Part shown: positions 41,200-56,604 of the stretch, piece by piece
How positions within the stretch are numbered: position 1 is the stretch's first letter
Layout of the letters: every line of letters begins with the position of its first letter
From: a virus
IMG/VR virus record: IMGVR_UViG_3300037067_015055
DNA: 64,000 nucleotides
Reading direction: 5' to 3' (one strand)
Notes under the pieces: generated by a model
Databases searched by the model: none
What the model saw: only the letters and a program-made list of their open reading frames with translations
What the model was told of the DNA's origin: nothing
Program-made: the position numbers and the translations under genes

Positions 41200-41403
41200 A
41201 TGAAAAAATTCATAACGTTATCATTCTTATTGTCGGCTTTGTTGCTATCATGTACCACAAACAAAACCAATCCTATCCCGCAGGTTGACGTTGGAGCAGC
41301 TGGAGCGGTTGGTATTGGTGGTGGTTTCAGCGCTGCTGGTACCTGTGATGTATCTGAAAGCGATGCTGGAGCTGGCGGAATTGCTGGAGTTGGTGGTAAG
41401 TAA
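41200..41403 (+). CDS. Small lipoprotein (67 aa precursor; lipobox LLSC; Gly/Ala-rich mature part)
   Basis: MKKFITLSFLLSALLLSC: classic signal peptidase II signal; starts 17 nt after fibre gene stop. Confidence 0.55.
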   Translation: MKKFITLSFLLSALLLSCTTNKTNPIPQVDVGAAGAVGIGGGFSAAGTCDVSESDAGAGGIAGVGGK

Positions 41404-41441
41404 TAGTCGAGAAGATGTAATTTATAGCCTTTTCAATTCAT

Positions 41442-42563
41442 ATGAGGATAAAGTTTCAACAATTTCTATTTGGCCAAAATCATTCATGGCAAATTGTAGG
41501 ACAGAATTTAGGTAGAGCACTTATAAAATTAGGTCATGATGTAGAATTTGTTTCAACAGACGGATTTGAACAGAGATTTGCTCCAAGTGACTTACTTCCT
41601 TTTGTTAGACAAAATCCTACTGGTCAATACGACTGTCAGATTAGTTATACAGCTCCTCATAACTGGCCCAACTATCTAAGTCATGGTACCAAGAACAGAT
41701 TTGGTATTTGGAATTACGAGTACAACAATAAAAGGTCAGTTGATAAGAACCAATCATTGCTGAAAGGATTTGCTAAGTTCTATAAATCAACTGACCTTGT
41801 TCTTCCATCCTCTAATTTCTCAAAAGAAGTATTCATTAATATGGGAATTCCTAATGAGAATATGGTAGTTGTTCCTCATGGAATTAACCTTCAAGATTTT
41901 GAGAGTGATAATACTTTCAAACTAAATACAAAAAAGACAAAAAAGATACTTCTCAACATTGCACAACCACATCGTAGAAAGGCTTTGCATCTTGCATTGA
42001 AGGCTTTTGGGCAGGCTTTTACCAAAGAAGATGATGTATGTTTGATAGCTAAGGTTTTCAAGCAGAACAAGAAGGATCATCCGTTTGACATTGACTTTAC
42101 TGGGTTATTTAAGACGTTTCAGACGAAGTTTCCTCTGCACGCTGAGGTTGAGTTTGTCTATTCATACATCCCTAATATCGCAGACTTGTATAAATCCTGT
42201 GATATAAATTTCTCAGCTACATTTGCTGAATGTTGGCACTTACCGTCTTTGGAAGCTCTTGCCTCTGGTATTATTAATGTGGTTCCAAGATATGGTGGAC
42301 AACTTGATTTCTGCAATGATGATAACTCACTTCTTATCGATGGAAATATTGTCAGAGCTCCCAGAGATCACCAGTATTGGGAGTCAACCCCTCACGCCGT
42401 GCATTTTGAAATAGATACAAATGATGCAGCTCGTAAACTACAGAGAGCAGTTTCTGAGTTTGATACTTTGAAGGCTAAATTTTCACCAAACATGACGGAG
42501 ACGGCCAAGAAGTTTACCTGGGAGAATGCAGCTAATCAGATTTTGGAGTTGTGCCATGATTGA
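41442..42563 (+). CDS. Glycosyltransferase, GT-B fold, family GT4-like (373 aa)
   Basis: C-terminal motif CWHLPSLEALASGIINVVPRYGGQLDFCNDDNSLLID matches the GT4/Glycos_transf_1 E..G.P..EAma.G.PvV....gG region. Confidence 0.65.
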   Translation: MRIKFQQFLFGQNHSWQIVGQNLGRALIKLGHDVEFVSTDGFEQRFAPSDLLPFVRQNPTGQYDCQISYTAPHNWPNYLSHGTKNRFGIWNYEYNNKRSVDKNQSLLKGFAKFYKSTDLVLPSSNFSKEVFINMGIPNENMVVVPHGINLQDFESDNTFKLNTKKTKKILLNIAQPHRRKALHLALKAFGQAFTKEDDVCLIAKVFKQNKKDHPFDIDFTGLFKTFQTKFPLHAEVEFVYSYIPNIADLYKSCDINFSATFAECWHLPSLEALASGIINVVPRYGGQLDFCNDDNSLLIDGNIVRAPRDHQYWESTPHAVHFEIDTNDAARKLQRAVSEFDTLKAKFSPNMTETAKKFTWENAANQILELCHD

Positions 42564-43260
42564 AAAAAAACTAGCTATCGTAATCCCGGTTTGGAATCAA
42601 TGGGCCTATACTAAGAGAGCCATTATCGATTTAGCTGCTCTTCCAGACAATCATTTATTGGTGATTGTTGATAACGGAAGTACTGATGGCAACTCCCAGC
42701 TAAGAAACTCCAATAGGCTTGAGATAGTCCGTCATTCCTCTAACCAGGGGTTTTCTAAAGGTTGCAATAGCGGATTTAAACGCGCCGTAGAGCTTGGCTA
42801 TGAGAATGTCATGTTCCTCAACAATGACATCCGGGTATTCGCCGAGGGTAAGGACGTTGAAACGTGGACAGAGCCATTGCTTCAGGCCGCACAAGATGGC
42901 TACATCGCCGGTCCAACTGCTGGGTATTTGGATGAGCAATTCAACTTCATTTGCGAGGCTTCCAAGCTCCCCACGCGCGGGTATGGGTACCTGAGCGGCT
43001 GGAACATCACGGCTTCCACCAAGACGTGGCAGAGGTTGATTTTAGATGGTGATACTGGGCCGTTTAATACCAGATTCATTTCCTACTTCGAGGATACTGA
43101 CCTATCTCTTCGAGCGCAGAAGATGGGTATTGAATTGAAGATTATAGAAGTTCCTGTTCGGCACATCGGTAAAGTTACCGGCAAGAAGGCTGGGCTTTCA
43201 GCGTTATATACACAGTCTCGGAAAACGTTTATTGAACTATGGAGTAAGAAATATGTATAA
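42556..43260 (+). CDS. Glycosyltransferase family 2 (start likely ATG 42556, MIEKKLAIVIPVWNQ...)
   Basis: LAIVIPVWNQ ... LLVIVDNGSTDG is the canonical GT2 N-terminal signature; ATGATTGA overlap with upstream stop. Confidence 0.75.
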   Translation: MIEKKLAIVIPVWNQWAYTKRAIIDLAALPDNHLLVIVDNGSTDGNSQLRNSNRLEIVRHSSNQGFSKGCNSGFKRAVELGYENVMFLNNDIRVFAEGKDVETWTEPLLQAAQDGYIAGPTAGYLDEQFNFICEASKLPTRGYGYLSGWNITASTKTWQRLILDGDTGPFNTRFISYFEDTDLSLRAQKMGIELKIIEVPVRHIGKVTGKKAGLSALYTQSRKTFIELWSKKYV

Positions 43261-43287
43261 TTGCATATTTTTACAGGCAAGGAACGT

Positions 43288-43416
43288 ATGTTTAATCAGA
43301 GTAAAAAGATAACATTGAGTGATTGCCAAAGGTTTGCAAAATCTATAAATGGCGAATGTCTTAGTGATGTTTATTCATATCGGCTAATAACTATGGAGAT
43401 GCAAAATGGGTCATGA
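43288..43416 (+). CDS. Possible small protein (42 aa, two Cys) in the largest intergenic gap of the window
   Basis: ATG preceded by AAGGAA 4 nt upstream; otherwise unsupported. Confidence 0.25.
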   Translation: MFNQSKKITLSDCQRFAKSINGECLSDVYSYRLITMEMQNGS

Positions 43417-43509
43417 ATGGAAGGCTATAATAAATAGTGTTATAAATCTTGGAACTTGGCGTCCTCATTGTCGCGAGACCCCTCGCAAAATTACTGAGAG
43501 GATTTCTTT

Positions 43510-44295
43510 ATGATCCATATACTAACTTTGCACTGGAATGCTAAAGATAAAATTGAGAAGCTACATAAGTCTCTAATTCCAGCTGTGGAGATGTTTGATT
43601 ACAAGTGGTGGATAAAGGACAATGGTTCCAAGGATGGCTCCGCCGAATATTTGACATCCATCCAAAATGGCAGGATAGAACCGTTCTTTTGTGGCCATAA
43701 TACTGACTCTTTCGCTAGTGGTATGAATATCCTGTTCGAGCGAGCCAAGCCCGCCGATGACGATGTGATTATGCTGCTCAACAACGATCTTTGGTTTGGG
43801 GACAAGGCTTCGGTTGTTGAGATGCACAAACTGCTTACTGATGAAGTTGGAATGGTGGGCGCTAGGATTTTGTATCCTGATGGCCAACGGTTGCAACATG
43901 CGGGAGTTTACTTCTCTAAGAAGTATAACTACTTTCCGTACCACTATCGACATCAAGAGGTTGGTGATTCGGCATCACAAAAAAATAGAGAATTCCAAGC
44001 TGTCACGGCGGCTGTAGTTCTCATTCGGGCAGGTGATTATCGAAGGGCATGTACCACCAACAAGAGTGGGCGTGTTGGAATGTGCGAAGGGTATTTCTGG
44101 TCTTTTGAGGATATTGATCTTTGCTTGACAGTTAAGTATCGCCTGAATAAGAAGATTATGTATTGCGGTAAGACCAACATCTTTCATGAGGAGAGTGCCT
44201 CCCTAAAAAAGAACCCCATGCACAAACTGATGATGAACACTAATTGCACGCTATTTCGCAAAAAGTGGGAGGGCGTCTATAAGCATGATGACTAA
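43510..44295 (+). CDS. Glycosyltransferase family 2-like (261 aa)
   Basis: IHILTLHWNAKDKIEKLHKSLIP...KWWIKDNGSKDGS pattern; RBS GAGAGGA. Confidence 0.6.
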   Translation: MIHILTLHWNAKDKIEKLHKSLIPAVEMFDYKWWIKDNGSKDGSAEYLTSIQNGRIEPFFCGHNTDSFASGMNILFERAKPADDDVIMLLNNDLWFGDKASVVEMHKLLTDEVGMVGARILYPDGQRLQHAGVYFSKKYNYFPYHYRHQEVGDSASQKNREFQAVTAAVVLIRAGDYRRACTTNKSGRVGMCEGYFWSFEDIDLCLTVKYRLNKKIMYCGKTNIFHEESASLKKNPMHKLMMNTNCTLFRKKWEGVYKHDD

Positions 44296-45254
44296 TGAAA
44301 CCCAAGCGCAAATACAAAGCCAGGTACTTTCCATTTTCTCCTGGAATCCCATGGAAAATTGAGCGGGGAAAATATGTCATTCCAGAAATTGATTTTGAAA
44401 CCTGGCATAAGATTCTTGATGGCCGCAATATCATCATTACTGCGTTCGGCGGCTTATTAGAGTCATTTTTGTCTTTAAGCGCAGTTGAAGCTATTTTATC
44501 TATTGACTCTGCGCACAAGGTCTATTGGCTTGGTAATCAAGAGTATTCCTTCTTGGTACGGCTGCAAGGCTTGTGTAAGATCAGTCTCATCAATCTCACA
44601 AAAGAAACCCTAAAGCAGTATCCGGTTCCGTTATTTTTGGATGGCAAGGGAAACGCCTACCTTAATGTTTTGAACAATTACATGCAGCGCACAAGCTATT
44701 GGGGAAAGTATCCAGAGGAAGTAACAGCGCCAGTTGTAGAACAGATATCTAGAAACATCATGATCCCTTGGGAAAGTTATGCTCCAAAGCTTAGAAATTT
44801 GGGGACTGAGTTCATAGATGAGCTCCAAAAAACAGGTCGAATACGCCAAATATCCAAGATTATCTCTATCATTCTGAACGAGACTAATAAAGATCTGTTA
44901 AAGTGGAGTCTGCAGAACTTCAAGGAGTTCTCACAACTAGCTTCTCATAAAGGATGGAAAGTTATTGTCTTCACAAACAACACAAATCTATTTCATGGGT
45001 CTAATATATTAGCAGTTGAATATAATCCAAGACACATACTTCAAGTCATCAAAAAATCATGGGTAATAATGTCCAATGATATTAATTGGTCATTGATGGC
45101 CTTGATGATATCAGAAGCCAAGTTGATATCCAAGCCTATAGATAACCAATATAGCCTATTCAAAAATGCCGAGTTCTTAGGCGCGAACAACGATATATTC
45201 ACAGATCGAAACCTTTATCCGATAGATGTTTTTGGGATTTGCGAGGGCTTATGA
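44295..45254 (+). CDS. Hypothetical protein (319 aa) within glycan island
   Basis: ATGA overlap with upstream gene; no motif recognised. Confidence 0.3.
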   Translation: MKPKRKYKARYFPFSPGIPWKIERGKYVIPEIDFETWHKILDGRNIIITAFGGLLESFLSLSAVEAILSIDSAHKVYWLGNQEYSFLVRLQGLCKISLINLTKETLKQYPVPLFLDGKGNAYLNVLNNYMQRTSYWGKYPEEVTAPVVEQISRNIMIPWESYAPKLRNLGTEFIDELQKTGRIRQISKIISIILNETNKDLLKWSLQNFKEFSQLASHKGWKVIVFTNNTNLFHGSNILAVEYNPRHILQVIKKSWVIMSNDINWSLMALMISEAKLISKPIDNQYSLFKNAEFLGANNDIFTDRNLYPIDVFGICEGL

Positions 45255-45385
45255 ACGATGCCTCTGTATAGGGAATATTTTCTAAGCAAAAAATACAGTT
45301 CTCAGAATCGTAGAATTATTCACCAGAGTTGTGGCGAATCACATTACCGGCTCTTATGGTTATTGCCCAAATGAAAGGAAAAATA

Positions 45386-46138
45386 ATGAAAACTGACACT
45401 GTTTTAATGATGGTAACATATGATCGACTTGATCTTACCAAGAAGACTATAGAAGCTTTACTAACCAGTACCGAGCATCCGTTTTCTTTGGTTGTAGTGG
45501 ATAATGGGTCCAAGGATGGGACTGTGGAATACCTTGAAAATATTGTGGGTGTCTACAACAGTGCCCCTCTTCAAGAGTTTCATAAGATTTTTCTTCCAGA
45601 GAATAAAGGAATTGCCATCGGGCGCAATCTGGCACTCAAGAAGGCTGATGAGATGAAACCAATTTGGTACTGTTCAATTGATAATGATGTACAGATGCCG
45701 AAAAGTTGGTTGGAAGATAGTATCAAAATTCTCCAGGCTAACAAAAGCTACGGAGCTATAGGAGTGAACTTCGAACCAAAACCATATCCTTTGGTAACAT
45801 TGAATGATTGCACGTTCCAAGATAAGCCAGCTGGAAATCTAGGAACGGCCTGTATGGTATTTCGAAAGCAATTACATCAAATGATCGGATTCTTCAATAC
45901 CGAGTATAATAAATATGGGTTAGAAGATAGTGATTTTGGAATACGTGCCAGAGTTGCCGGTTTCAAATTAGGCTATGTCAAGCAGATGGGCATTCACTTG
46001 GGCGAAGACAATAATGAGGTCAATGAGTATCGTAAATTCAAAACCCAGCAGCATAATGACCTTGTAGGAGTATTTCAAAGAAACTGCGGCTTGTATATGC
46101 AGAAACGCAAGCCAATTTATATTCCATTTAAGGATTAA
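45386..46138 (+). CDS. Glycosyltransferase family 2 (start likely ATG 45386, MKTDTVLMMVTYDRL...; alternative ATG 45371 or 45329)
   Basis: VLMMVTYDRLDLTKKTIEALL...SLVVVDNGSKDGT GT2 signature; AAAGGAAAA RBS before 45386. Confidence 0.7.
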   Translation: MKTDTVLMMVTYDRLDLTKKTIEALLTSTEHPFSLVVVDNGSKDGTVEYLENIVGVYNSAPLQEFHKIFLPENKGIAIGRNLALKKADEMKPIWYCSIDNDVQMPKSWLEDSIKILQANKSYGAIGVNFEPKPYPLVTLNDCTFQDKPAGNLGTACMVFRKQLHQMIGFFNTEYNKYGLEDSDFGIRARVAGFKLGYVKQMGIHLGEDNNEVNEYRKFKTQQHNDLVGVFQRNCGLYMQKRKPIYIPFKD

Positions 46139-46798
46139 ATGATCATCGTAACATCATTCGTATTATCCAAACGCAACGAGCGTAATAAGGAATTTTTATT
46201 TGCCCTAACCAAAAACTCAGCAAATGTATTAATTGACTCCATTCATGTGGTAACAGAGGATGAATCTGTTGTTGATTTTGTAAAGAATATAGGTAATGTG
46301 TGTGTTTTTAAAGTAGATTCGCGGCCTACTTTTAAGGTACTTGTTGATTACGCAAATACATTATCTGGTCCAGTTGCGATTGCTAATTCAGATATCTTTT
46401 TTGATGATTCATTGGCAATACCGGAACCAGGGGTGGCTTTTTGCCTTACTCGATGGTTTCCTGCTGTAAGTGGCAATGGTCCATGGCATGTTCGTCCATG
46501 GATTGAGAGTGACGGCATGTCGTTCGATGCTTGGATTTTTCATCCTCCAATAATAGTAAGTGATATAAATTTCTATCTTGGAATTCTTGGCTGTGATGGA
46601 AAATTTGCATATGAACTTCACCGCTCAGGATTGAAGGTAATTAATCCATCTAAAAAAATACGATCTTATCATGTTCATGGTTCTGTAATTAGGGATTATG
46701 GAGATGAGTGGGTTAAAGGAAGCTATCTTAGAATTGGTATGGTTGATGATTTTAAATATCACTCAAATCTTATCTATGTAACAATAACAAAGGAATAA
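46139..46798 (+). CDS. Hypothetical protein (219 aa) within glycan island
   Basis: Start codon abuts upstream stop (TAAATG); no motif recognised. Confidence 0.3.
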   Translation: MIIVTSFVLSKRNERNKEFLFALTKNSANVLIDSIHVVTEDESVVDFVKNIGNVCVFKVDSRPTFKVLVDYANTLSGPVAIANSDIFFDDSLAIPEPGVAFCLTRWFPAVSGNGPWHVRPWIESDGMSFDAWIFHPPIIVSDINFYLGILGCDGKFAYELHRSGLKVINPSKKIRSYHVHGSVIRDYGDEWVKGSYLRIGMVDDFKYHSNLIYVTITKE

Positions 46799-46799
46799 T

Positions 46800-47468
46800 A
46801 TGGAAATACCAGACGATATGAAGCAGTTTTTTTCTAATGGAGAATATTGCGAGAAAAATGTATATTACCATTTACAAAGATTGGTTGATTGTAATTCTGT
46901 ATTTTATGATATTGGAGCAAATTATGGATATTATTCCGTTAGGTTAGCTGGTGTGTGTAAGCAGATATATTCATTTGAACCTGTCACGAAAACTTTTTCA
47001 GTATTGTGTGAAAATACATCAAATTTTCCAAACGTGAAACCGATTAAATTAGGCCTATTTAATGAGTTTGGTGAACATGAAATAAACCTCTATAATGTTT
47101 CTGGTTGTAATTCTCTGTTTAGAAGAAATGTGAATGTTTTAAGATATGTTGGAGTTGAAAATATTCAATTAGATACTCTAGATCATGTGATTGATTACTT
47201 AAACTTACTTCCACCTACTATAATCAAAATGGACGTTGAGGGAGTTGAGAAGCATATCCTACAAGGAGCCTCTAATACCCTAACTCACAAACCTGTATTA
47301 TTATTAGAATACGGAATAACTACAGCAAATGATTCTGGATATGATGTATCGGATATTTTAGAAATACTTACAGGATATGGGTATAAAATACAAAGCTTAT
47401 CTGGTGATAATGATTTGTTTTTGTATGATCAAATAGATACCTCTACAACAAATATCTTAGCGACATAG
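46800..47468 (+). CDS. FkbM-family SAM-dependent methyltransferase (Methyltransf_21)
   Basis: VFYDIGANYGYYSVRLAG...IYSFEPVTKTFSVL matches the FkbM motif (DiGAN.G..s......v.afEP.p..f..L). Confidence 0.65.
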   Translation: MEIPDDMKQFFSNGEYCEKNVYYHLQRLVDCNSVFYDIGANYGYYSVRLAGVCKQIYSFEPVTKTFSVLCENTSNFPNVKPIKLGLFNEFGEHEINLYNVSGCNSLFRRNVNVLRYVGVENIQLDTLDHVIDYLNLLPPTIIKMDVEGVEKHILQGASNTLTHKPVLLLEYGITTANDSGYDVSDILEILTGYGYKIQSLSGDNDLFLYDQIDTSTTNILAT

Positions 47469-48374
47469 AGTTTCAAGTATAGTTTTATAGCATCTCGGCA
47501 TACTTGTCTGGTAGAAGATTCCCATTGGATCATTCAAGCATTTAGTTGCTGCAATGGTGAATTGATTAAATTTTTCATTTGAGAATGTTCGTATTGCTTC
47601 CATTAGTGGTTCTTTAAGTAGTATTGGGGATTGGTTTGGTTTTTTGATGACAAAGTTTCTTAGATCAAAGAACGTATCTTTGGGAAGTATATCATCAACG
47701 TTATATGCCCCCAGATATAAAGGGACTGTACCACTATACATTACGTGTAATGGTTTTTCTGTAAAATAGTTGTGCGAATATATTGGGTCATAGGTATTTT
47801 CGGTACATATACCAAACCTATACCTAGATAGAACTCTTATCTTTTCAGGAATAGACCCACGGTAATATCTATTACCTGGATTGCTATGGCCAAACCAATC
47901 AACTACAAATCCATTTTCATAAAATAGATCTGCTAACATTTCCCTAAGACAATATATAGACGCTTGATGTGTAGAGGTTTTATTACAAGATATAATAACT
48001 ACACCATTAATACGTTCTTCCCATGTTGGCCATGTCAGTTTTACATTAGTCACCCTAGAATCACATAGTTCGGAACCGCAGTTGATTGGTACAAATTTAT
48101 CCTTGATCGCCGAGGTTTCAAAGAATTTATTCGCCCAGCTAAATACCGTTTTGAATTTCGAAAGGTAGTTTAGATCGTAGTGTGATGGAGTGGTAACTAT
48201 CGGTTCTAAAACAACAATACTGTCTTCTGATTGAGGATCTTTTGCATCTCCAAAAAATATGTTTGGCATCGATGGATCGCGGCAATTTGACATCCATACT
48301 TTACCTTCTTCGCCTTCGTATTCAAGAGTTCTACTTTGCCTGGCGTAGTATACAATATTTACTTCTTTGCACAT
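47457..48374 (-). CDS. Alpha-1,3/4-fucosyltransferase-like glycosyltransferase (GT10 family), minus strand
   Basis: FGICTENTYDPIYSHNYFTEKPLHVMYSGTVPLYLGA matches the GT10 signature (fENs...dYvTEK....l..g.VPVvlG); converges on and overlaps FkbM gene by 12 nt. Confidence 0.65.
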   Translation of the reverse strand: MCKEVNIVYYARQSRTLEYEGEEGKVWMSNCRDPSMPNIFFGDAKDPQSEDSIVVLEPIVTTPSHYDLNYLSKFKTVFSWANKFFETSAIKDKFVPINCGSELCDSRVTNVKLTWPTWEERINGVVIISCNKTSTHQASIYCLREMLADLFYENGFVVDWFGHSNPGNRYYRGSIPEKIRVLSRYRFGICTENTYDPIYSHNYFTEKPLHVMYSGTVPLYLGAYNVDDILPKDTFFDLRNFVIKKPNQSPILLKEPLMEAIRTFSNEKFNQFTIAATKCLNDPMGIFYQTSMPRCYKTILETLCR

Positions 48375-48397: not shown

Positions 48398-49009
48398 ATG
48401 CTCAAGCCTATTCGTGCTCTTGTTTATGAGTTTGATTTGAAGATTCGTGGCGTAATTCATATCGGCGGTCATTATGGTCAAGAATACTCTTCTTATAAAA
48501 ACTTTGGGCTTACCAATATAGTATTTGTAGAGCCTCAACCAAAAGTCTTTGGAATCCTTTCTCAAAATGTTGGTGTGGAATGTTTGCTATTCAATACCGC
48601 GCTTGGTAACTTTGAAGGGAAAACAGAGATGTTTACAGAAGAAGCTAATCAGGGGCAATCATCTTCATTATTGCAACCTAAAAAACATCTAAATCAGTAT
48701 CCAAATATCATATTCAATAGTAAAGTTGAAGTGGATGTTACTAAGTTAGATTTGCTACCACTTGATTTCCAGCTATATAACTTCATCAATATTGATGTTC
48801 AAGGATACGAACTGGAAGTTTTCAAAGGGGGAGTTGAGACACTAAAAAATATAGATTATGTCTATGCAGAGGTTAATAGGGCCGAGTTGTATAAAGGCTG
48901 CGCTATGGTGGAAGATATAGATAACTTCTTAGGCGAGTATAAGTTTAAGCGCGTTGATACGTGGTGGGATGGTGTAACTTGGGGTGATGCATTGTATATT
49001 AAAGGATGA
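48398..49009 (+). CDS. FkbM-family methyltransferase (second copy); real start ATG 48398 (MLKPIRAL...), the longer ORF-track start overlaps the GT10 gene
   Basis: GVIHIGGHYGQEYSSYKNFGLTNIVFVEPQPKVFGIL matches FkbM motif. Confidence 0.6.
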   Translation: MLKPIRALVYEFDLKIRGVIHIGGHYGQEYSSYKNFGLTNIVFVEPQPKVFGILSQNVGVECLLFNTALGNFEGKTEMFTEEANQGQSSSLLQPKKHLNQYPNIIFNSKVEVDVTKLDLLPLDFQLYNFINIDVQGYELEVFKGGVETLKNIDYVYAEVNRAELYKGCAMVEDIDNFLGEYKFKRVDTWWDGVTWGDALYIKG

Positions 49010-49010
49010 T

Positions 49011-49748
49011 ATGAATCATTTTGTAATTGTAATCCCAAGCTATCAAAATCGTATTTGGTGTGAAAAGACCTTGATGTCAGTTTTGACCCAGGAGTATCCT
49101 CATTTCAGAGCAATTTATTCTGATGATTGCTCTACCGATGGAACTGCCGATGAAGTTGATAGATTGTTAGCCGAGAAGGACAAAGATAAGCGTGTCACCT
49201 TGGTTCGTAATACAGAGCGTTTGTACGCGGTGCATAACATCTACAACATGGTTCATAGCTGCGATGATGATGAAATCATTGTGATGTTGGATGGTGATGA
49301 TTGGCTGGAAAATACGAATGTCCTATCCAGGCTTAGTGAGGAGTACGACAAAGGGATATGGATGACCTACGGGCAATATATCTCTCACCATGATCGAGAG
49401 ATCGGTTGTTCTTACCAGATCCCCAGGGAAATTATCGAGGCAGGGGCGTTTAGGCGCTACAGGTGGTGCTCTTCTCACCTGCGAACATTTTATGCTTGGT
49501 TATACAAGAAAATTCGTCCAGAGGATTTGATGCACAATGGTCAATGGCTAAAGATGTCTGGTGATTTGGCAGCTATGTTCCCGATGCTGGAGATGGCTGG
49601 TCCGAAACAATCGTTCATTCCAGATATTCTGTATGAGTATAATTACACATCTCCAATCAATGACGGTAAGATAAATAGAAACTTACAGATTGAATTGGAA
49701 AGGAAAATACGGTCAATGCATCCATATCAGAGAATATTAGAGAGGTGA
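49011..49748 (+). CDS. Glycosyltransferase family 2 (start likely ATG 49011, MNHFVIVIPSYQN...)
   Basis: FVIVIPSYQNRIW...AIYSDDCSTDGT GT2 signature; AAAGGA RBS; TGAnATG junction with upstream gene. Confidence 0.7.
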   Translation: MNHFVIVIPSYQNRIWCEKTLMSVLTQEYPHFRAIYSDDCSTDGTADEVDRLLAEKDKDKRVTLVRNTERLYAVHNIYNMVHSCDDDEIIVMLDGDDWLENTNVLSRLSEEYDKGIWMTYGQYISHHDREIGCSYQIPREIIEAGAFRRYRWCSSHLRTFYAWLYKKIRPEDLMHNGQWLKMSGDLAAMFPMLEMAGPKQSFIPDILYEYNYTSPINDGKINRNLQIELERKIRSMHPYQRILER

Positions 49749-49750
49749 GA

Positions 49751-50716
49751 ATGGGCGCTAAAATAGAGCTAGATATTTACACAATATATTCAGAACATTG
49801 TCGTGGAGTATCTGTCAGTTATTTGTCGAAAAAATATTCAGTTTCAAGAGAAACATTATTTAGAAGATTCAAAAGCCTTGGCCTTAAAACTAAGACTAAA
49901 ATGTCTTTATATAATGCTCAATCTGAGAATATAATACGTTTGTATATTTCAAATAATTCAATACAGGATATTTCTTTAACTTTATCAATTCCAGTTACTC
50001 AAGTATGGCGAGTTTTAAAATCAAATAACATTAAGGCTACCGAACAATATAATTACGTAAATAAATTTAATAAGTACGAGATTAATGAATATTTTGATAC
50101 TATAGACACTCCAAATAAAGCTTATTTTCTTGGTTTATTGTATGCTGATGGAAATGTAAACCGTAAACTTAATCAAATTACTTTAAAATTAAAAGCCTCT
50201 GATGTTCATATTTTAAATGATATAAAATACGAATTTGGAATAAATGGACCATTATACAAAGATAGACCAAAAAATCCAAGGGCAGAAAATCAACTGGCCC
50301 TAAAAATAATCAATAAACGCACAAAAGATAATTTTATAAGACACGGCGTAATTCCAAGAAAAACATGGAGATTAAGTTTTCCATTCTGGTTACCTCAAAA
50401 CTTGAGAAGTCACTTTGTTAGAGGTTATTTTGATGGAGATGGCTGTCTTTATATTGATCGGAATAGAAATAATGCGTCTTTTGATATATGTGGCACATAT
50501 AACATGTGCTCTGATTTGGAATTTGTACTGAAAAATTCCATTGGAGTTTGTACGCAAATTTCAAAAGATCGAAATATTTTTCGTATCAGAATTAGAAGAT
50601 ATATAGATGTAGTGGCTGTATGTAATTGGATGTATTATGATGCCAAGTTATTTCTCAAAAGAAAATATGATAAATACCAGGAAATTAGGAGTATGAATGT
50701 GCGCAACGTTTTATGA
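49751..50716 (+). CDS. Free-standing LAGLIDADG homing endonuclease with N-terminal HTH-like DNA-binding repeats
   Basis: Two LAGLIDADG motifs: AYFLGLLYADGNV and RGYFDGDGCLYI; very AT-rich (~28% GC) relative to flanks; inserted between two glycosyltransferase genes. Confidence 0.85.
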   Translation: MGAKIELDIYTIYSEHCRGVSVSYLSKKYSVSRETLFRRFKSLGLKTKTKMSLYNAQSENIIRLYISNNSIQDISLTLSIPVTQVWRVLKSNNIKATEQYNYVNKFNKYEINEYFDTIDTPNKAYFLGLLYADGNVNRKLNQITLKLKASDVHILNDIKYEFGINGPLYKDRPKNPRAENQLALKIINKRTKDNFIRHGVIPRKTWRLSFPFWLPQNLRSHFVRGYFDGDGCLYIDRNRNNASFDICGTYNMCSDLEFVLKNSIGVCTQISKDRNIFRIRIRRYIDVVAVCNWMYYDAKLFLKRKYDKYQEIRSMNVRNVL

Positions 50717-50727
50717 ATTAGGAAATC

Positions 50728-51426
50728 ATGGTCGTGCTGGGCAATGCATTATTTCAGATAGCTACCACTATCGGATATGCAAAGAAGTACAACGTACCAT
50801 TTTGTTTCCCTAAATGGGAATATCAATCTCTCACAAATATACCAGAAGATTGTTTCGTAGACAAGTCATCCATCCGAGTGTCAACTTATTTCAAAGAACC
50901 TCGATACGTCTATTCAAACATACCATTTCAAGATAGTTGTTCTCTATCTGGGTACTTTCAAAGCTGGAAATATTTTGAGAATTGTCAGGATTACATAAGG
51001 AAAATGCTTTCCCCAATTCCAGAAGAAGATTTAAAAGAATATTGCTGTATTCACGTTAGACGCGGAGATTATTTGAGGTATCCAGAACATCACCCAATTC
51101 AAACAATGCAGTATTATATGAGTGCTGTCGAAAAGATTCCTGTGAAGAAATTCATGGTATTTTCAGATGATGTTGCTTGGTGCAAACAGAACTTTACTGG
51201 TAATGAATTTACTGTAAATGAAACTTCTTCTGTAACCTCTGATTTTCGAAGAATGGTTAATTGTTCTCATTTCATCATTGCCAATAGTTCGTTCTCTTGG
51301 TGGCCAGCCTGGCTTAGTTCAAGAGTTGGTAAAGTAGTTGTAGCGCCTAGTAATTGGTTTGGTTCAAAATTAAAAAAATCAAATCCCATAACAGATCTTA
51401 TTCCTCCAGGGTGGATTGTTATATGA
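50728..51426 (+). CDS. Alpha-1,2-fucosyltransferase-like glycosyltransferase (GT11 family)
   Basis: N-terminal VVLGNALFQIAT (GT11 motif I, GGLGNQ.FQyA) and CIHVRRGDY (GT11 HxRRGD motif). Confidence 0.7.
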   Translation: MVVLGNALFQIATTIGYAKKYNVPFCFPKWEYQSLTNIPEDCFVDKSSIRVSTYFKEPRYVYSNIPFQDSCSLSGYFQSWKYFENCQDYIRKMLSPIPEEDLKEYCCIHVRRGDYLRYPEHHPIQTMQYYMSAVEKIPVKKFMVFSDDVAWCKQNFTGNEFTVNETSSVTSDFRRMVNCSHFIIANSSFSWWPAWLSSRVGKVVVAPSNWFGSKLKKSNPITDLIPPGWIVI

Positions 51427-52307
51427 TAAAAAAGGTTATCTTCTTTAATACATATCACAATGGAGATATACATGTGAGTAGGAGCTTGGTCGGAGCTATA
51501 TCTGATATTTGTGCCAAGAGAAATATACCATGTGAATATTGTCATGGGAATGGTTCTTCTCTATTAGCAGATATAAAAAATCTTACTCATGTACCAAATC
51601 GTTACGGTCTACATGCTCATTTTCCAAGTTCAATAGTTGGTAATGTTTTATTCATCAATACTTGGTATTGTGCAGATATGAATAACTTTCAAAAGTACAA
51701 TCTTACATTTGATTGTTTATACATGAATTTCAAGGAGTCGGCTAAATGGTTAGATATTGATCTGGATACCATTTCCGGAATTGAACTATTCCCGAACATT
51801 AATTTTGAACATTTTGCGATTGGTAAGGCAAAAGAATGGTTGGGAAGCCGCTCTCGTCCATTAGTCTTCGTCTCGAATGGAAGTGCTTTATCTGGGCAGG
51901 CTACAAATTTCTCCTTTTCTGAAATCATACATAAACTGGCACAAGAGTATGATTATATTGATTTTTTAATTTCTAATACCGAGGCAAATTACAAACCAAT
52001 GCCGAATACATTCATGACATCAGATATTATCCAGAAGGTTGGGTGTGATCTAAATGAAAATGCGTATTTGGCTGGTCATTGCTCATTGATTTTAGGGCGC
52101 TGTTCTGGAGCTTACAGTTTCGCGGTAAATCGCCAAAACTATTGGGATAATCCGAAGACATTTTTGGCCTTCACTACTCTGAAGCCTAGTGAAGCAATTT
52201 GGACTCATCAATTCACCCCTCCTGTTCTGGCAAAAATCATATCGCATGACGTATCTGATCATAGGGTGATTGATTTGATTAGAGAGCATCTACCATCAAA
52301 ATTTTGA
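51423..52307 (+). CDS. Putative glycosyltransferase-like protein (GT-B/GT9-like C-terminal region); start ATG 51423 overlapping upstream stop
   Basis: ...NENAYLAGHCSLILGRCSGAYSFA resembles the donor-binding region of GT9/GT-B enzymes; weak. Confidence 0.3.
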   Translation: MIKKVIFFNTYHNGDIHVSRSLVGAISDICAKRNIPCEYCHGNGSSLLADIKNLTHVPNRYGLHAHFPSSIVGNVLFINTWYCADMNNFQKYNLTFDCLYMNFKESAKWLDIDLDTISGIELFPNINFEHFAIGKAKEWLGSRSRPLVFVSNGSALSGQATNFSFSEIIHKLAQEYDYIDFLISNTEANYKPMPNTFMTSDIIQKVGCDLNENAYLAGHCSLILGRCSGAYSFAVNRQNYWDNPKTFLAFTTLKPSEAIWTHQFTPPVLAKIISHDVSDHRVIDLIREHLPSKF

Positions 52308-52333
52308 GACTAGTACACGTTATATATTGAACT

Positions 52334-53431
52334 ATGATTCCTATCTACAAACCGTTTTGGCCAAAAAACTCCAAGAACTATGCACTGAAGGCGCTGGAGG
52401 ATTGTTGGCTCATTATGCACGACAACAATACTATCGTGGAAGAACAGCTTGCAGAAAGGACTGGTGCAAAACATGTTATTCTTACATGTAATGGAACGGC
52501 CGCTATTCATTTGGTAGCTAAATGCCTACAATATAAGCATCCAGAAGTTACCCAACTTATCGTGCCTAATCTGGTCTATGTTGCTGCCTGGAATGCATTC
52601 CTACAAGAAAATTTCGGCCTGCATATGGCTCGAACAAATCTGAATACATGGAACTTCGATGTGGAACATGTTGCTAAGCTGGTTGACTTTAAGAATTCGG
52701 CCATTCTTGCTGTTCATAATCTTGGTAATCCACTACCAGTCCAAGAACTTCTTAAATTTGGAATTCCTGTGGTGGAAGATGCCTGTGAAGCGCTATTTGG
52801 CAGCTACGGTGGCCAGAAGGTTCCGTCCCTAGGCTTGGCCTCAGCTTTATCATTCTTTGGTAACAAAACAGTTACATCAGGAGAGGGTGGCGCTTTTGTA
52901 ACAAATGATGATGAATTAGCTGACTATGCCAAAAGACTACGCGGTCAAGGGCAAACAAGTCAAAGGTATATTCACGATGTCTTGGGATACAATTATCGGA
53001 TGACTAATATTCAAGCGGCGATATTAAGGGGACAATTAGAGTATGCCGATGAAATATTAGATAGAAAAGCTGATATATGGAATTATTATGATGAGGCTTT
53101 TTCTAATAGAGAAGATGTTCTTATACAAATGACAGAGAAGGATAGTTCCCATTCAAAGTGGATGTATGGAATTAGACTCCCTAATAGGAATGAATCATTT
53201 GAGGTTAAGCAAGCATTCTTTAATAGTCGAGGGTTTGACATTAGGCCAATGTTTTATCCTATGAGGTATCATGCTCATCTAAAAGAAAATCGTAATGTCT
53301 GGATTTGTAATGATGAAGTTGGAGATTTAATATCTCAAAGTTCGATAATGCTACCGAGTTTCCCAGATATAACTAGGGAAGAGCAATCAATAGTGATATC
53401 TTCCGTGAATGAGTTTTTGTGTCATTATTAA
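52334..53431 (+). CDS. PLP-dependent sugar aminotransferase, DegT/DnrJ/EryC1/StrS family
   Basis: ...TCNGTAAIHLVAKCL...VVEDACEALFGSYGGQKVPSLG...SFFGNKTVTSGEGGAFVTNDDELADYAKRLRGQG matches the family hallmarks including the active-site Lys region (F..NK.i..GEGG). Confidence 0.8.
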   Translation: MIPIYKPFWPKNSKNYALKALEDCWLIMHDNNTIVEEQLAERTGAKHVILTCNGTAAIHLVAKCLQYKHPEVTQLIVPNLVYVAAWNAFLQENFGLHMARTNLNTWNFDVEHVAKLVDFKNSAILAVHNLGNPLPVQELLKFGIPVVEDACEALFGSYGGQKVPSLGLASALSFFGNKTVTSGEGGAFVTNDDELADYAKRLRGQGQTSQRYIHDVLGYNYRMTNIQAAILRGQLEYADEILDRKADIWNYYDEAFSNREDVLIQMTEKDSSHSKWMYGIRLPNRNESFEVKQAFFNSRGFDIRPMFYPMRYHAHLKENRNVWICNDEVGDLISQSSIMLPSFPDITREEQSIVISSVNEFLCHY

Positions 53432-53575: not shown

Positions 53576-54733
53576 ATGAATATTGAAATTATCAAAAGAG
53601 CTATCTATGCCGTAATTCCGAAGAATGTACATGTTTCTAATGTAGATATCAAAGAGGACAATGGAAAGCTATCCATACAGATTAGCTGGGCAGTTTTTAC
53701 GGATAGCGCGCCCAGATTGGATTTGGAATTCGGTAGTGATAATAATTGGTGTGATGGATATGTCCGCATACCTACCCACCCACCCATTATAGACTTCGAT
53801 CAACGGATACCTATTGGTAAACTGGATTTACCAGAGGCCCTTCAAGAGGCCAACAAGCTTCGGGCAGAAGAGATTGATAAGTCGAATGCTGAATCTATTA
53901 GAGAGGCAGAAGATGCTCGTATTTTGGAAGAGTTAATCAAGAAAGCTACTGGTCCAGATGCGGTAACAAAGCCCACAGCTGATGTGCGAGAAGTGCGAAC
54001 GCCAGAAGGTAGAAAGGTGAATCGAATCAGCCTTCCGAAAGATGTGACTGTGGTTGCCAAGGGTACTGACCAATATGAAAAGGCTCTGATTCGTGCAGGA
54101 ATAGATCCGTTAATAGCTAAAGACATGGCTGAACCATTGCCACCAAAAAAGCCATTGCCACCAAAAAAGCAACTAAAGATAACCGTAGAAGGAAAGTTGG
54201 TAACTCCAATTGATCTACCCTTGCGAGAGTTGAAAGTTCCTAGCCCAAATACCAAGGCAGAAGCTGAATTTCGTAGGAAGATTTATCCAGGAGTCTTTCG
54301 GCGTGCAGAACCAGACGGTTACACTACAATCATTGTTGATGGTAAACCAAAGGTGATTGATGGTTACCAGAAGCCGCGCAATGTCAAAAATGCTTTTGAG
54401 GTAGTTGCCGAGTACAAGAAGGCCGTTGAGGCGTACGATAAGCGCTTTGCGAATGTTAGGTCGCCTCTCGCACCAAAGCCGAATGCCAATGATAAAGGCA
54501 AGCGTGGTGTTGCTGCTCTCACGTCTCATGCCCTACCTTTCTCACATCGGGATAGGAAGGTTACTGATGTTGAAGTTATGTTCATGGCCAATGAGAAGAT
54601 GGCAAAATTAACAGATTCGCCTTCGTTGCTTGATGACCTGAAAGCTATCGAAGTCAAGCTGCCACCTCAAACCAAGCTCAATAGAATAATGTTCCATCTA
54701 AGATCAATCAAGAACGAAATACTAAGGAAGTAA
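53576..54733 (+). CDS. Hypothetical protein (385 aa) with tandem PLPPKK repeat
   Basis: Complete ORF; 18-nt exact tandem duplication at 54134-54169. Confidence 0.3.
   Translation: MNIEIIKRAIYAVIPKNVHVSNVDIKEDNGKLSIQISWAVFTDSAPRLDLEFGSDNNWCDGYVRIPTHPPIIDFDQRIPIGKLDLPEALQEANKLRAEEIDKSNAESIREAEDARILEELIKKATGPDAVTKPTADVREVRTPEGRKVNRISLPKDVTVVAKGTDQYEKALIRAGIDPLIAKDMAEPLPPKKPLPPKKQLKITVEGKLVTPIDLPLRELKVPSPNTKAEAEFRRKIYPGVFRRAEPDGYTTIIVDGKPKVIDGYQKPRNVKNAFEVVAEYKKAVEAYDKRFANVRSPLAPKPNANDKGKRGVAALTSHALPFSHRDRKVTDVEVMFMANEKMAKLTDSPSLLDDLKAIEVKLPPQTKLNRIMFHLRSIKNEILRK
54134..54169 (+). repeat. Exact 18-nt tandem duplication (ccattgccaccaaaaaag x2), in frame (PLPPKK x2)
   Basis: Seen directly. Confidence 0.9.
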
Positions 54734-54807
54734 TGGCTAAGAGGAAGAAAGTTCTAGTAACAGGTAGTGGTGGCCTCTATCAATATTTAGATATTTGTAT
54801 ATGTTGA
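54733..54807 (+). pseudogene. Remnant 5' fragment of an NAD-dependent epimerase/dehydratase gene: encodes MAKRKKVLVTGSGG then diverges and stops
   Basis: First 14 aa identical (one L/M difference) to the N-terminus of the intact epimerase gene at 55675 but with 11 synonymous nucleotide differences; immediately upstream of a homing-endonuclease-like gene. Confidence 0.55.
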
Positions 54808-55682
54808 TTTCGGAGAGACCTTTAGGTAAAAGAACTAGGGAGTTTTTGATTAGGTGTGAATCGTGTGGAACTGAAGAATGGTTGCCTGGTAAGAAATGTA
54901 AGTTTGGTGGCAGAAGGTATTGTTCAAAGAAGTGCATTAATCTTGGGCGACATAAATCAGAAGAACAAAAAAAGCATTTATCCGATGTAAGTCTTGGAGA
55001 AAAGAATCACTTCTTTGGGAAGCGCCATTCTAAGACATCAAAGGAAAAAATGTCAGAAACTCACAGCGATCTTGGTGGTCTATACCATATGATGAAAGCC
55101 AAACTATCAGCTGATGAGTTTGATATTTACTGGAGTGAATACTGCAGTAAATTTATTGGTGCCAAAAATCCATTCTTTGGAAAGGTGCATTCCTCAGCTA
55201 CCAGAGCAAAGATATCAATAACAAGATCTAATCTAATATCAAGTGGCCAAATTGATATCAAGCCTAGTCATTATGGACTTAAAGGATATTATACATCAAA
55301 AAAAACAGGAGAGGTGTTTAGGTTCGATTCCTTTACAGAATATATTAGGATGATTGTTCTTGATACGGATGATAATGTTACAACGTGGACAAAAAGACAT
55401 AAAATAAGAATCCAGTATGAATTCGATGGTGAACAGAAGAACTATATACCAGATTTTTTAGTTGCTAAAATTGATGGCGAGGTTATAGAGGAAGTGAAGG
55501 GTTATGAGAATAAAAAAAAGAAGGAAGCGAAATTTTCAGCTCTGCGGGCATACTGTAAAGAACATGGGTTTGGTTGTAGTATTGTGACATATGAGGATGT
55601 CAGAAATATGTGTCTGAGTCATTTTGGGAAAAGTATAGATGTTTTAAGAGAACAATACAAAAAGGGATTATTTCATGGCTAA
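54801..55682 (+). CDS. Homing-endonuclease-like protein: N-terminal CxxC Zn-finger, two NUMOD3-like motifs (NHFFGKRHSKTSKEKMS, NPFFGKVHSSATRAKIS), C-terminal PD-(D/E)xK-like nuclease motif (IPDFLV...IEEVKG)
   Basis: Motifs read from translation; inserted between a gene remnant and its intact copy; start ATG 54801 (ORF track used TTG at 54795). Confidence 0.5.
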   Translation: MLISERPLGKRTREFLIRCESCGTEEWLPGKKCKFGGRRYCSKKCINLGRHKSEEQKKHLSDVSLGEKNHFFGKRHSKTSKEKMSETHSDLGGLYHMMKAKLSADEFDIYWSEYCSKFIGAKNPFFGKVHSSATRAKISITRSNLISSGQIDIKPSHYGLKGYYTSKKTGEVFRFDSFTEYIRMIVLDTDDNVTTWTKRHKIRIQYEFDGEQKNYIPDFLVAKIDGEVIEEVKGYENKKKKEAKFSALRAYCKEHGFGCSIVTYEDVRNMCLSHFGKSIDVLREQYKKGLFHG

Positions 55683-56604
55683 AAGAAAGAAGGTAATGGT
55701 CACTGGTTCAGGAGGGTTTATTTTCGGAAACTTCATTCGACAAGTTTTCTATTCTAAGCTGCCCTACACCATTTCTAGTATTGACAGGGTAAGAGACTCC
55801 CATATCATTCATAATATCTATGTGAACGCCGATCATTCGTTCCATATTGCGGATATTACGGATGCTCATATTCTACATGTAATCTTTGAGAAGGAACGCC
55901 CAGATATTGTAATACATGGTGCGGCTGAAACTATAGATGAACAGTCGATGAACAGCCGCAACATTTTTGGCACCAAGGCTGTCGTCAATGAATGCTTGAA
56001 GATGGAGTCGAAGCTGATTTACGTGAGCACAGATCGAGTTTATGGAGATCTTGGATCCGAGGAGGTTCCGCTTCGGAAGGAGGCTGATCCAGTCAATCCA
56101 CATGGAGTTCTTGCAACAACCAAGGCCAGCGGCGAGGCGTTCGTCAAGGGCGCTTCTGGTTTGGATTACAACATTATTCGCCTGAGCAATAATTACGGGC
56201 CATGGCAGACGGTTTCGGGTCTCATTCCTCATATTATTGATGGAATATTTGATGAGAAACCAGTTGAGATATATGGGACTGGATCTCAAACAAGAGATTG
56301 GACTCATGTCTTTGATACTTGTTCTGCGATATTTGCTATTATCGAAAATTGGGTTGGCGGAGAGATATATAACATAACTTCCAAACAGGAATTTAGCAAT
56401 CTTGAGGTTGTTCAAATAGTTTGTAATGCCCTTAGTAAAGGGCATGAGTTAGTAAAACATGTCGAGAGAGATTTTGATTCTAGATATGCTATGGCTAATG
56501 ATAAAATCAAAGCACTAGGGTGGTCTCCACAATTCAAGTTCAGAGATGGAATTGCTCAGACTTGCCAATGGTATCTGAATAATAAATATGTGCTAAAGAT
56601 GTAA
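55675..56604 (+). CDS. NAD(P)-dependent sugar epimerase/dehydratase (extended SDR family)
   Basis: VMVTGSGGFIFGNFI Rossmann motif; YVSTDRVYGD; NPHGVLATTKASGE region (expected PYxxSK has His in place of catalytic Tyr); NNYGPWQ. Confidence 0.75.
   Translation: MAKRKKVMVTGSGGFIFGNFIRQVFYSKLPYTISSIDRVRDSHIIHNIYVNADHSFHIADITDAHILHVIFEKERPDIVIHGAAETIDEQSMNSRNIFGTKAVVNECLKMESKLIYVSTDRVYGDLGSEEVPLRKEADPVNPHGVLATTKASGEAFVKGASGLDYNIIRLSNNYGPWQTVSGLIPHIIDGIFDEKPVEIYGTGSQTRDWTHVFDTCSAIFAIIENWVGGEIYNITSKQEFSNLEVVQIVCNALSKGHELVKHVERDFDSRYAMANDKIKALGWSPQFKFRDGIAQTCQWYLNNKYVLKM

Follow-up and report, generated by a model that had tools for sequence, protein, structure and literature searches.

A predicted glycan-biosynthesis island with two fucosyltransferase families adjoins the distal tail genes of a huge phage lineage

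The capsid glycans of chlorovirus PBCV-1 and the fibril glycans of Mimivirus are built with a viral GDP-mannose 4,6-dehydratase (GMD), a fucose/rhamnose synthase, aminotransferases, soluble glycosyltransferases and methyltransferases, and these giant-virus virion glycans are methylated, rich in 6-deoxy and amino sugars and composed of a conserved core bearing variable decorations. In E. coli O157 the O-antigen cluster contains gmd, fcl, per, glycosyltransferase genes, wzx and wzy, the product of GMD being passed to Fcl or Per and then to the glycosyltransferases. T-even phages glycosylate modified DNA bases to evade restriction, and more diverse phage DNA glycosylation systems were reportedly described by Pyle et al. 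in 2024. To our knowledge, virion glycosylation in mycobacteriophages is the only use of multiple glycosyltransferases by tailed phages that has been shown experimentally beyond DNA modification and seroconversion; the systems of Freeman et al. 2023 are said to comprise a few transferases each. Large glycosyltransferase islands of lytic phages have been on record for cyanophages from the earliest genomes onwards, and we know of no work that has shown the virion, the host surface or the DNA to be their target. Cyanophage S-SCSM1 encodes GMD, GDP-L-fucose synthase and three kinds of fucosyltransferase (PMC9602691), S-SCSM2R carries 13 glycosyltransferases, including one GT10 and two GT11, together with nucleoside diphosphate-sugar epimerases (PMC12801897), and four core glycosyltransferase orthogroups were described in the 'moraphages' (PMC12619734). 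In mycobacteriophages Che8, Corndog and Myrna, phage glycosyltransferases modify the phages' own capsid and tail proteins in the cytoplasm, according to the passages of PMC12619734 and PMC12801897 that cite Freeman et al. (2023). Here we analyse a 64,000-nucleotide stretch of viral DNA (IMG/VR record IMGVR_UViG_3300037067_015055, hereafter the window), in which positions 41200-56604 hold an island of predicted sugar-transferring and sugar-modifying enzymes that may, as we tentatively propose, glycosylate the phage's own virion proteins.

The island span was nearly all coding on the plus strand, with a single inverted gene. A gap of 17 bp separates its start from the last tail gene, which has the same orientation, an arrangement that holds across the clade described below. 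The island is preceded by genes for a tail sheath (phrog_279), the baseplate wedge (phrog_6) and distal tail proteins of very large size, and it is followed by a tubulin/TubZ-like gene and a UvsW-like helicase gene. The window had no DNA-level match in the phage collection, in which its sheath protein was only 26-28% identical over 20-35% of its length to that of any phage, the Bacillus phage G sheath being remotely similar. Many relatives were found in IMG/VR on contigs of 200-480 kb; the two closest had a sheath 81% and a tubulin 88% identical to those of the window, and their sheath-to-tubulin distance, computed from the contig ranges, was 49.1 kb, as in the window. The order of fibre genes, island and tubulin gene recurred in at least six related IMG/VR huge-phage contigs: it was seen in the loci L165/L166, L167, L038 and L164, and the island also abutted the tubulin gene in L160-L163. 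Moreover, an independent ENA assembly (ERZ27247358, a 143-kb contig) contained identical genes in identical order. Since the same order occurs in related huge phages and in an independent assembly, chimeric host DNA and misassembly were ruled out, and the preliminary description of this DNA was right to regard the region as phage-encoded. The region is thus, on the basis of gene content and synteny, a real phage-encoded island for glycan biosynthesis adjoining the distal tail genes.

Window proteins were 100% identical to GenBank entries MCK9567799.1 and MCK9567808.1 (M0R72_02465, M0R72_02510), which belong to a 463,377-bp contig labelled 'Candidatus Pacearchaeota archaeon'. Judging from its sheath, baseplate and tubulin genes and from the many related IMG/VR viral contigs, this contig represents a huge phage that was wrongly assigned to the metagenome-assembled genome of a DPANN archaeon. 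Shine-Dalgarno-like motifs preceded 22 of the 38 genes, against a background of 16%, and their usage was equal in island and structural genes. Identity with the 'moraphages' was considered and not established, as the paper makes no mention of tubulin and predicts Bacteroidota hosts (PMC12619734) and the window is rich in Shine-Dalgarno motifs.

The gene inventory was obtained by Pfam profile searches with curated cutoffs and by further NCBIfam, PHROGs and PDB sequence searches (Table 1). Every enzyme class named in the preliminary description was found where it had been placed, and the profile searches confirmed the glycosyltransferase families. In total, nine glycosyltransferases are predicted: one GT4, four GT2, one GT10, one GT11 and two GT9-like proteins.

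Table 1. Predicted features of the island and of its borders, with window coordinates and the evidence for each assignment (aa, amino acids; ORF, open reading frame; PLP, pyridoxal phosphate; SDR, short-chain dehydrogenase/reductase).
Feature	Coordinates	Strand	Evidence and remarks
Two very large distal tail/fibre-like proteins (2281 aa, 994 aa)	31357..41183	+	Upstream island border
Small lipoprotein-like ORF, 67 aa	41200..41403	+	Signal MKKFITLSFLLSALLLSC (LLLSC), GGAG ribosome-binding site
GT4 (GT-B) glycosyltransferase	41442..42563	+	PF13439 34.6 bits, PF00534 29.3 bits, both above cutoff
GT2 'a'	42556..43260	+	PF00535 39.4 bits (cutoff 23.3); start codon from ENA gene call
GT2 'b'	43510..44295	+	PF00535 31.4 bits (cutoff 23.3)
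GT9-like GT-B fold protein, putative glycosyltransferase, no sequence family	44295..45254	+	Predicted structure
GT2 'c', GT7C-like C-terminal part	45329..46138	+	PF00535 64.8 bits, PF02709 25.7 bits
Conserved 219-aa protein, no family	46139..46798	+	Motifs NSDIFFD, GCD, NPS..H.H
FkbM-family methyltransferase 1	46800..47468	+	PF05050 49.2 bits
GT10 (alpha-1,3/4-fucosyltransferase-like)	47457..48374	-	PF00852 27.5 bits (cutoff 23.9)
FkbM-family methyltransferase 2	48398..49009	+	PF05050 57.3 bits; start codon from ENA gene call
GT2 'd', DGDD motif	48984..49748	+	PF00535 56.6 bits, PF13641 41.6 bits
Free-standing LAGLIDADG homing endonuclease	49751..50716	+	PF14528 40.9 bits
Short-form GT11 (alpha-1,2-fucosyltransferase family)	50728..51426	+	PF01531 105 bits (cutoff 23.9)
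Second GT9-like GT-B fold protein, putative glycosyltransferase, no sequence family	51423..52307	+	Predicted structure
DegT-family PLP sugar aminotransferase	52334..53431	+	PF01041 245 bits
Lys/Pro-rich 385-aa protein	53576..54733	+	No match in any library
NUMOD3 + TnsA-like-nuclease homing endonuclease	54801..55682	+	PF07460 56 bits, PF08722 34 bits
RmlB-like SDR, degenerate catalytic residues	55675..56604	+	SDR Pfam match 126 bits
Tubulin/TubZ-like GTPase with intein, downstream island border	56619..59411	+	PF00091 53 bits, PF14890 45 bits, PF05204 31 bits

The presence of two distinct fucosyltransferase families, proposed earlier from the letters alone, was borne out by a minus-strand GT10 and by a GT11 displaying the HxRRGD motif as HVRRGD at residue 109. 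The GT10 profile match exceeded its cutoff by a small margin (27.5 vs 23.9 bits) and covered positions 28-112 of the 182 of PF00852. In the PDB sequence search the protein matched alpha-1,3-fucosyltransferases only (9s6a; 2nzw, the H. pylori enzyme; 5zoi; 7yro), and the corresponding signature was found at residues 186-207 as FGICTENT, seven residues and NYFTEK; the spacing between the two halves is about 4 residues longer than in the pattern F-x-L/V-x-F-E-N-S/T ... Y-x-T-E-K, and the segment aligns to 9s6a and 2nzw. GT10 was the sole inverted gene of the island, its 3' end overlapping the first FkbM gene by 12 nt and its start lying 23 nt from the start of the second. The inverted orientation was kept in L165, in L167 (as two tandem copies) and in L038, which hints at separate regulation or at a cassette inherited as a unit.

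The GT11 protein matched only positions 117-295 of the 298 of PF01531, and phrog_2644 over positions 13-265 of 265 with 172 bits. Its counterparts in the relatives have the same length, and the window GT11 is accordingly best read from the alignments as a natural short form. GT11 genes from 103 phage records, most of them of cyanomyoviruses, were 33-37% identical to it. Truncation of GT11 by the LAGLIDADG gene that precedes it, whether through a split gene or an intein, was rejected, the endonuclease being a separate ORF with its own stop; truncation was also contradicted by relatives free of the endonuclease, in which a GT11 of equal length directly follows GT2d. GDP-fucose as donor for both GT10 and GT11 is indirectly supported by the GMD and Fcl-like genes in the islands of relatives, and in L038 the GT10 orthologue itself co-occurs with such genes.

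The sugar chemistry of the island was then compared with that of its relatives. The DegT protein has its PLP-lysine motif FFGNK at residue 174, and its best PDB matches were the perosamine synthetases 3bn1, 3dr7 and 3dr4 (160-162 bits, against 134 bits for the next match); in NCBIfam the best family was LegC at 191 bits against a cutoff of 420, no equivalog being reached. DegT is therefore probably of the GDP-perosamine-synthase type, as far as homology can tell. In L038 its orthologue is directly followed by a true GMD (TIGR01472, 439 bits against a cutoff of 415) and then by an Fcl-like SDR. In L162 and L160 a GMD together with an Fcl-like gene immediately precedes the RmlB-like gene, L162 having in addition a sugar-phosphate nucleotidyltransferase, and of the two only the Fcl-like gene was found in the L165 island. 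Because the islands of relatives carry GMD and Fcl-like genes, we infer that this island family is built on GDP-mannose-derived sugars, namely GDP-L-fucose and probably GDP-perosamine, in keeping with the GT10 and GT11 assignments.

The SDR at the end of the island gave its best PDB match with 6bi4 (150 bits) and scored 230 bits with TIGR01181, below the equivalog cutoff of 365. In alignments to 6bi4 and 2hun the catalytic Tyr was replaced by Leu146 (LATTK), the STDE motif read STDR (residue 118; Glu changed to Arg121) and the GxxGxxG NAD motif read GSGGFIF. Six members were compared (window, L158, L160, L162, L163 and L164): the Glu was changed to Arg, Lys or Asn in four of them and kept in L162 and L164, the Tyr was lost in the window, L158 and L164, and the third Gly of the NAD motif was replaced in all six. 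Because both catalytic Tyr and Glu are lost, the window protein is probably not an active 4,6-dehydratase, and the RmlB-like SDR looks from these substitutions to be a conserved pseudo-enzyme of the clade. Throughout the clade its gene directly precedes that for tubulin.

These results did not sustain the amino-sugar pathway that had been read from the DegT and SDR genes. A self-contained dTDP-4-amino-4,6-dideoxyhexose route was rejected, since the SDR lacks the Tyr, the Glu and part of the NAD motif and DegT groups with GDP-perosamine synthases, whose partner GMD is missing from the window. Nor is the enzyme set complete, as had been suggested: the window island contained neither GMD nor Fcl and hence no gene for GDP-fucose synthesis, so that the GDP-sugars must be drawn from the host or made by genes located in other parts of the 463-kb genome. 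Among the best 120 matches of the protein search there was no GMD from the same 463,377-bp contig, which suggests its absence without proving it. Since the GMD and Fcl genes of the relatives' islands are missing here, the phage probably depends on its host for GDP-4-keto-6-deoxymannose and GDP-fucose.

To follow the island across the clade, window proteins were compared with the fetched loci of relatives by tblastn. The closest relatives (L165/L166) start with the fibre genes, GT4 (81% identical), GT2a, GT2b (82%), the first GT9-like gene (74%) and GT2c (77%), continue with a different SDR, the inverted GT10 (48%), FkbM2 (73% in L165), GT2d and GT11 (72%), and end with 4 kb of other genes, among them an Fcl-like SDR and a STELLO-type glycosyltransferase, followed by the 385-aa ORF, an endonuclease remnant, the RmlB-like gene and tubulin. 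The order in L167 is that of L165, GT10 and the second GT9-like gene each being present twice; identities are 57% for DegT, 66% for GT4, 63% for GT2b and 68% for GT2c. L038 holds GT10, two copies of GT2d, GT11, a Glyco_trans_1_2 glycosyltransferase, FkbM, a GT9-like gene, an ATP-grasp protein, DegT, GMD and the Fcl-like gene; the NUMOD endonuclease comes next, then the RmlB-like gene and tubulin. In the distant L164, whose tubulin is 49% identical, only the fibre genes, GT4 (38% identical to that of the window), GT2a, two unrelated ORFs, GT2b (46%), the RmlB-like gene and tubulin were found. By this comparison the conserved core of the island consists of GT4, GT2a, GT2b and the RmlB-like gene, and the middle section is variable and lower in GC. 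The tail proteins encoded at 31357-41183 were likewise syntenic, with 65-77% identity in L165 and L167 and 31-35% in L164.

Base composition and mobile elements were examined along the same locus. GC content per enzyme gene was 30.9-45.6%, with 29.3% for the LAGLIDADG gene, figures that replace the range of about 33-47% quoted previously. Island genes had a mean GC of 0.388 against 0.418 for the other genes (Mann-Whitney p = 0.01) and were only marginally more variable (standard deviation 0.038 vs 0.023, Levene p = 0.058). Since the variable section of the locus matches a lower-GC block at 46.1-52.3 kb, a mosaic origin is plausible; the presence and absence of genes in relatives shows the mosaicism better than GC does, and the earlier idea of an assembly from several sources agrees with the conserved core and the variable, lower-GC middle.

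Both homing-endonuclease genes noticed at the outset were confirmed. At the junction between GT2d and GT11 the LAGLIDADG gene was absent, and the two flanking genes adjacent, in all three relatives in which that junction was seen (L165, L167, L038), and the NUMOD endonuclease was intact in L162 and L038, reduced to a 37-residue remnant in L158 and absent elsewhere. Both are selfish inserts outside the sugar pathway and variable passengers. Next door, the tubulin/TubZ-like GTPase contains a 469-residue intein (residues 83-551, about 56865-58271) with a LAGLIDADG/Hom_end endonuclease domain, inserted directly after the GSGQAG nucleotide-binding loop (...GSGQAG|C...THN|S...) and absent from all seven relative loci with a tubulin match; a shallow literature search returned no report of an intein in a phage tubulin. 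Other interruptions were seen in relatives. In L162 (2340-4094) a nucleotidyltransferase has an intein carrying a LAGLIDADG domain, and in L160 the GMD (4056-6218) is 720 aa long with its Pfam match split in two and the Fcl-like SDR (6225-8735) is 836 aa long. The UvsW-like helicase (60030-61511), continuous in the window, was split into residues 1-142 and 143-491 with a gap of about 1.2-1.3 kb in L160, L162 and L164, which suggests the insertion of an intein, intron or endonuclease gene. Mobile elements are thus unusually dense in the island locus of this clade.

A locus of this kind could be a partly decayed accessory cargo, that is, a horizontally acquired mosaic of sugar genes at a recombination-prone boundary, of which several members may be non-functional or serve unrelated single steps. 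The RmlB-like protein deprived of its catalytic Tyr and Glu, the loss of the GMD and Fcl genes found in relatives (with no GMD of the 463,377-bp contig among the best 120 matches), the two homing endonucleases with the neighbouring intein and the lower GC of the variable middle section all fit such a history. However, all transferase ORFs are intact, tightly packed and 48-82% identical to the orthologues of relatives, the diagnostic motifs are kept (HVRRGD, YFTEK, DxD and the PLP lysine), and a host GDP-mannose dehydratase is common and can supply the missing step. We consider partial decay of the island improbable in this particular genome.

We tentatively favour, as a reading that could well be correct but falls short of being probable, a phage-owned cytoplasmic glycan assembly line acting on virion proteins. 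The island enzymes would act in the cytoplasm, adding sugars stepwise from nucleotide sugars that would include GDP-L-fucose and probably GDP-perosamine, supplied through the GDP-mannose 4,6-dehydratase pathway of the host. The resulting oligosaccharide would be methylated and rich in 6-deoxyhexoses, with fucose and an amino-deoxyhexose. The acceptor, which is a guess, would be the phage's own virion proteins, either distal tail/fibre or capsid proteins, glycosylated before or during assembly. The core enzymes might lay down the inner glycan and the variable enzymes diversify the outer sugars.

Virion proteins are favoured because the core is conserved beside the distal tail genes across a deep clade, and because a constant core surrounded by variable genes is in line with a conserved protein acceptor whose outer sugars diversify. 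Mycobacteriophage transferases that glycosylate capsid and tail proteins, as cited in PMC12619734, also favour such an acceptor. The island genes share the orientation of the tail genes and directly follow them with no terminator signal in between; promoter and terminator matches were not above chance. A hydrophobic scan with a 19-residue window detected no membrane-spanning segment in any island enzyme, the sole window above threshold, in ORF 44295-45254, falling within a globular GT-B model.

Several observations count against this proposal. No sequence feature identifies the acceptor, and the structural proteins of the window show no Ser/Thr-rich or other obvious glycosylation tract. The families involved (GT9-like, GT10/GT11, Per and GMD/Fcl) are typical of lipopolysaccharide (LPS) and O-antigen clusters, and the missing membrane segments do not discriminate, because the transferases of those pathways, too, are soluble or peripheral proteins. 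The island lies at a module boundary crowded with homing endonucleases and inteins, where accessory genes gather irrespective of function, and the timing of expression is inferred from gene order alone. Finally, the cyanophage studies interpret equivalent clusters as serving to modify the host cell wall (PMC9602691, PMC12801897).

The tail proteins that precede the island are very large and follow the phrog_6 baseplate wedge. The earlier placement of the island after tail-fibre genes therefore holds as regards the distal tail position, while the name 'fibre' rests on position, no fibre family match being found. The 994-aa protein encoded at 38199-41183, the last of them, contains a dockerin type I-like calcium-binding repeat (PF00404, 32 bits) at residues 596-663, conserved in L165. 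Such a repeat, uncommon among phage tail proteins, might serve in attachment, either between proteins or related to carbohydrates.

A second candidate acceptor had been named in the preliminary description, a Thr-rich secreted protein at 7257-8117 (7257-8150 in our analysis, minus strand). This is a lone minus-strand gene in the structural block, with a GC content of 54.5% against 41% for the window. The protein displays a lipoprotein-type signal (...VITMAC), Ser/Thr/Gly-rich repeats (33% Ser plus Thr) and a Cys-rich C-terminal domain, and has weak homologues at the same place in L088, L083 and L084, though not in the closest relatives. It could be an exported, mucin-like or exclusion protein. 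This Sec/lipoprotein-type exported protein, encoded on the opposite strand, is an unlikely substrate for enzymes that would act in the cytoplasm. The small lipoprotein said to lead the island has a homologue (LLVSCTNK) in L165 only, and L167 and L164 leave no room for the ORF. Being present in the closest relative only, it is a variable passenger and does not head the island.

Four ORFs of the island (44295-45254, 46139-46798, 51423-52307 and 53576-54733) had no match in Pfam, NCBIfam, PHROGs or PDB sequences. For the first and third of these, metagenomic homologues were collected and structures were predicted from the alignments, returning confident models with pLDDT values of 94.3 and 94.4. 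In these models both proteins appeared closest in fold to the LPS heptosyltransferases WaaC and WaaF, which are GT9 structures; the GT9 heptosyltransferases also include the protein heptosyltransferase TibC. Neither ORF gave a Pfam or NCBIfam match to Glyco_transf_9, hhalign detected no relationship between the two families, and a comparison with viral structure models returned weak neighbours for a GT9-like protein (TM about 0.5). The motifs NSDIFFD, GCD and NPS..H.H of the 219-aa ORF were invariant among homologues in other phage sugar islands, and hhalign against a GT2 found nothing. The Lys/Pro-rich 385-aa protein, 35-45% identical in the closest relatives only, is not recognisable from its sequence as a sugar enzyme.

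The resemblance of the two GT9-like proteins to WaaC and WaaF is one of the points in favour of host-envelope remodelling. According to this alternative, soluble transferases would act at the inner membrane face on host lipid-linked intermediates, such as precursors of the LPS core, O-antigen, capsule or S-layer, and would exploit the initiating transferase, flippase and ligase of the host; the altered, fucosylated and methylated surface would block superinfection or adsorption to debris. The enzyme set indeed mirrors O-antigen clusters, with a Per-like DegT, GMD/Fcl in relatives, GT10/GT11 and GT4/GT2, and lipoprotein genes, a class that includes known exclusion factors, are present at 41200-41403 and 7257-8150. 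The published interpretation of the cyanophage clusters points the same way (PMC9602691, PMC12801897), although it was never tested. However, Pfam families and the membrane-segment scan revealed no flippase, polymerase, ligase or initiating phosphoglycosyl transferase in the island, and a Gtr seroconversion cluster (GtrA/GtrB/GtrV) was not recognised, the island encoding no membrane proteins. Furthermore, the core is kept across a deep clade that probably spans several hosts, which is unexpected for enzymes fitted to the acceptor of one host, the genes stand at the end of the late structural block and not among early genes, and linkage of the lipoprotein gene to the island is inconsistent. The window showed no integrase or lysogeny genes in a scan for such families that covered part of its ORFs. 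On this evidence envelope remodelling is possible, though we regard it as rather unlikely.

The position of the island next to replication-type genes (tubulin, UvsW-like helicase) also raises the question of DNA hypermodification, by which the transferases would glycosylate modified bases, such as 5-hydroxymethyl-pyrimidines, and protect the phage genome against restriction. Glycosyltransferases acting on phage DNA are well established and can build multi-sugar glycans, as cited in PMC12619734. Nevertheless, the 64-kb window contains no hydroxymethylase or other base-modifying gene, GT10/GT11, FkbM O-methyltransferases, a perosamine-type aminotransferase and GMD/Fcl are not known in DNA glycosylation, and nine transferases far exceed the known DNA systems, so that we consider this explanation very improbable.

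Returning to virion glycosylation, a broader version of the proposal extends to the whole clade. These huge phages (200-480 kb) might self-glycosylate their virions, most plausibly the distal tail or fibre proteins, with a methylated fucose/perosamine glycan whose conserved inner core would depend on GT4, GT2a, GT2b and a dead RmlB-like sugar-nucleotide binder and whose outer layer would diversify rapidly, two unclassified glycosyltransferase families being among the enzymes, a combination that we put forward as doubtful. As the phage is uncultivated and the pathway incomplete in its genome, the locus is a useful catalogue entry and not a surprise. The split into core and variable genes offers a comparative handle, namely whether variation in the outer genes tracks the fibres or the host. 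The locus also supplies a delimited set of genes for expression in other organisms, two GT-B proteins with confident structures and a conserved pseudo-dehydratase.

Among known systems, the island resembles the clusters of T4-like cyanophages (S-SCSM1, S-SCSM2R, P-SSM2, S-SM2), in which genes for numerous soluble glycosyltransferases and for nucleotide-sugar enzymes are grouped in the genome of a lytic myovirus. The co-occurrence of two fucosyltransferase families within a phage is not new, because S-SCSM1 and S-SCSM2R already have comparable islands including GT10, GT11 and GMD/Fcl, and the novelty implied at first was overstated. In contrast to the cyanophages, the window phage belongs to an unrelated huge-phage lineage, its island is fixed between the fibre and tubulin genes and has a conserved core, and it adds two GT9-like folds without a sequence family and an inactive-looking RmlB homologue. 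The novelty thus lies in the lineage, in the constant placement of the island beside the fibre genes, in the core/variable split, in the two GT-B proteins without a sequence family and in the conserved pseudo-RmlB, and the locus represents a second, unrelated lineage with a glycosyltransferase island, at a fixed address adjoining the receptor-binding end of the tail. Perosamine/fucose O-antigen clusters employ the same enzyme families and GDP-sugar logic, whereas the island lacks wzx, wzy, manB/manC and membrane components and sits at a phage structural-to-replication junction. The island glycosyltransferases are genetically linked to structural genes, as expected of a virion-glycosylation system; the mycobacteriophage systems of this kind belong to phages with hosts among the Actinobacteria. 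Chloroviruses and Mimivirus are eukaryotic viruses to which no orthology is shown; if the proposal is true, a self-glycosylating clade of huge phages would be the bacterial-virus counterpart of their glycosylation machinery.

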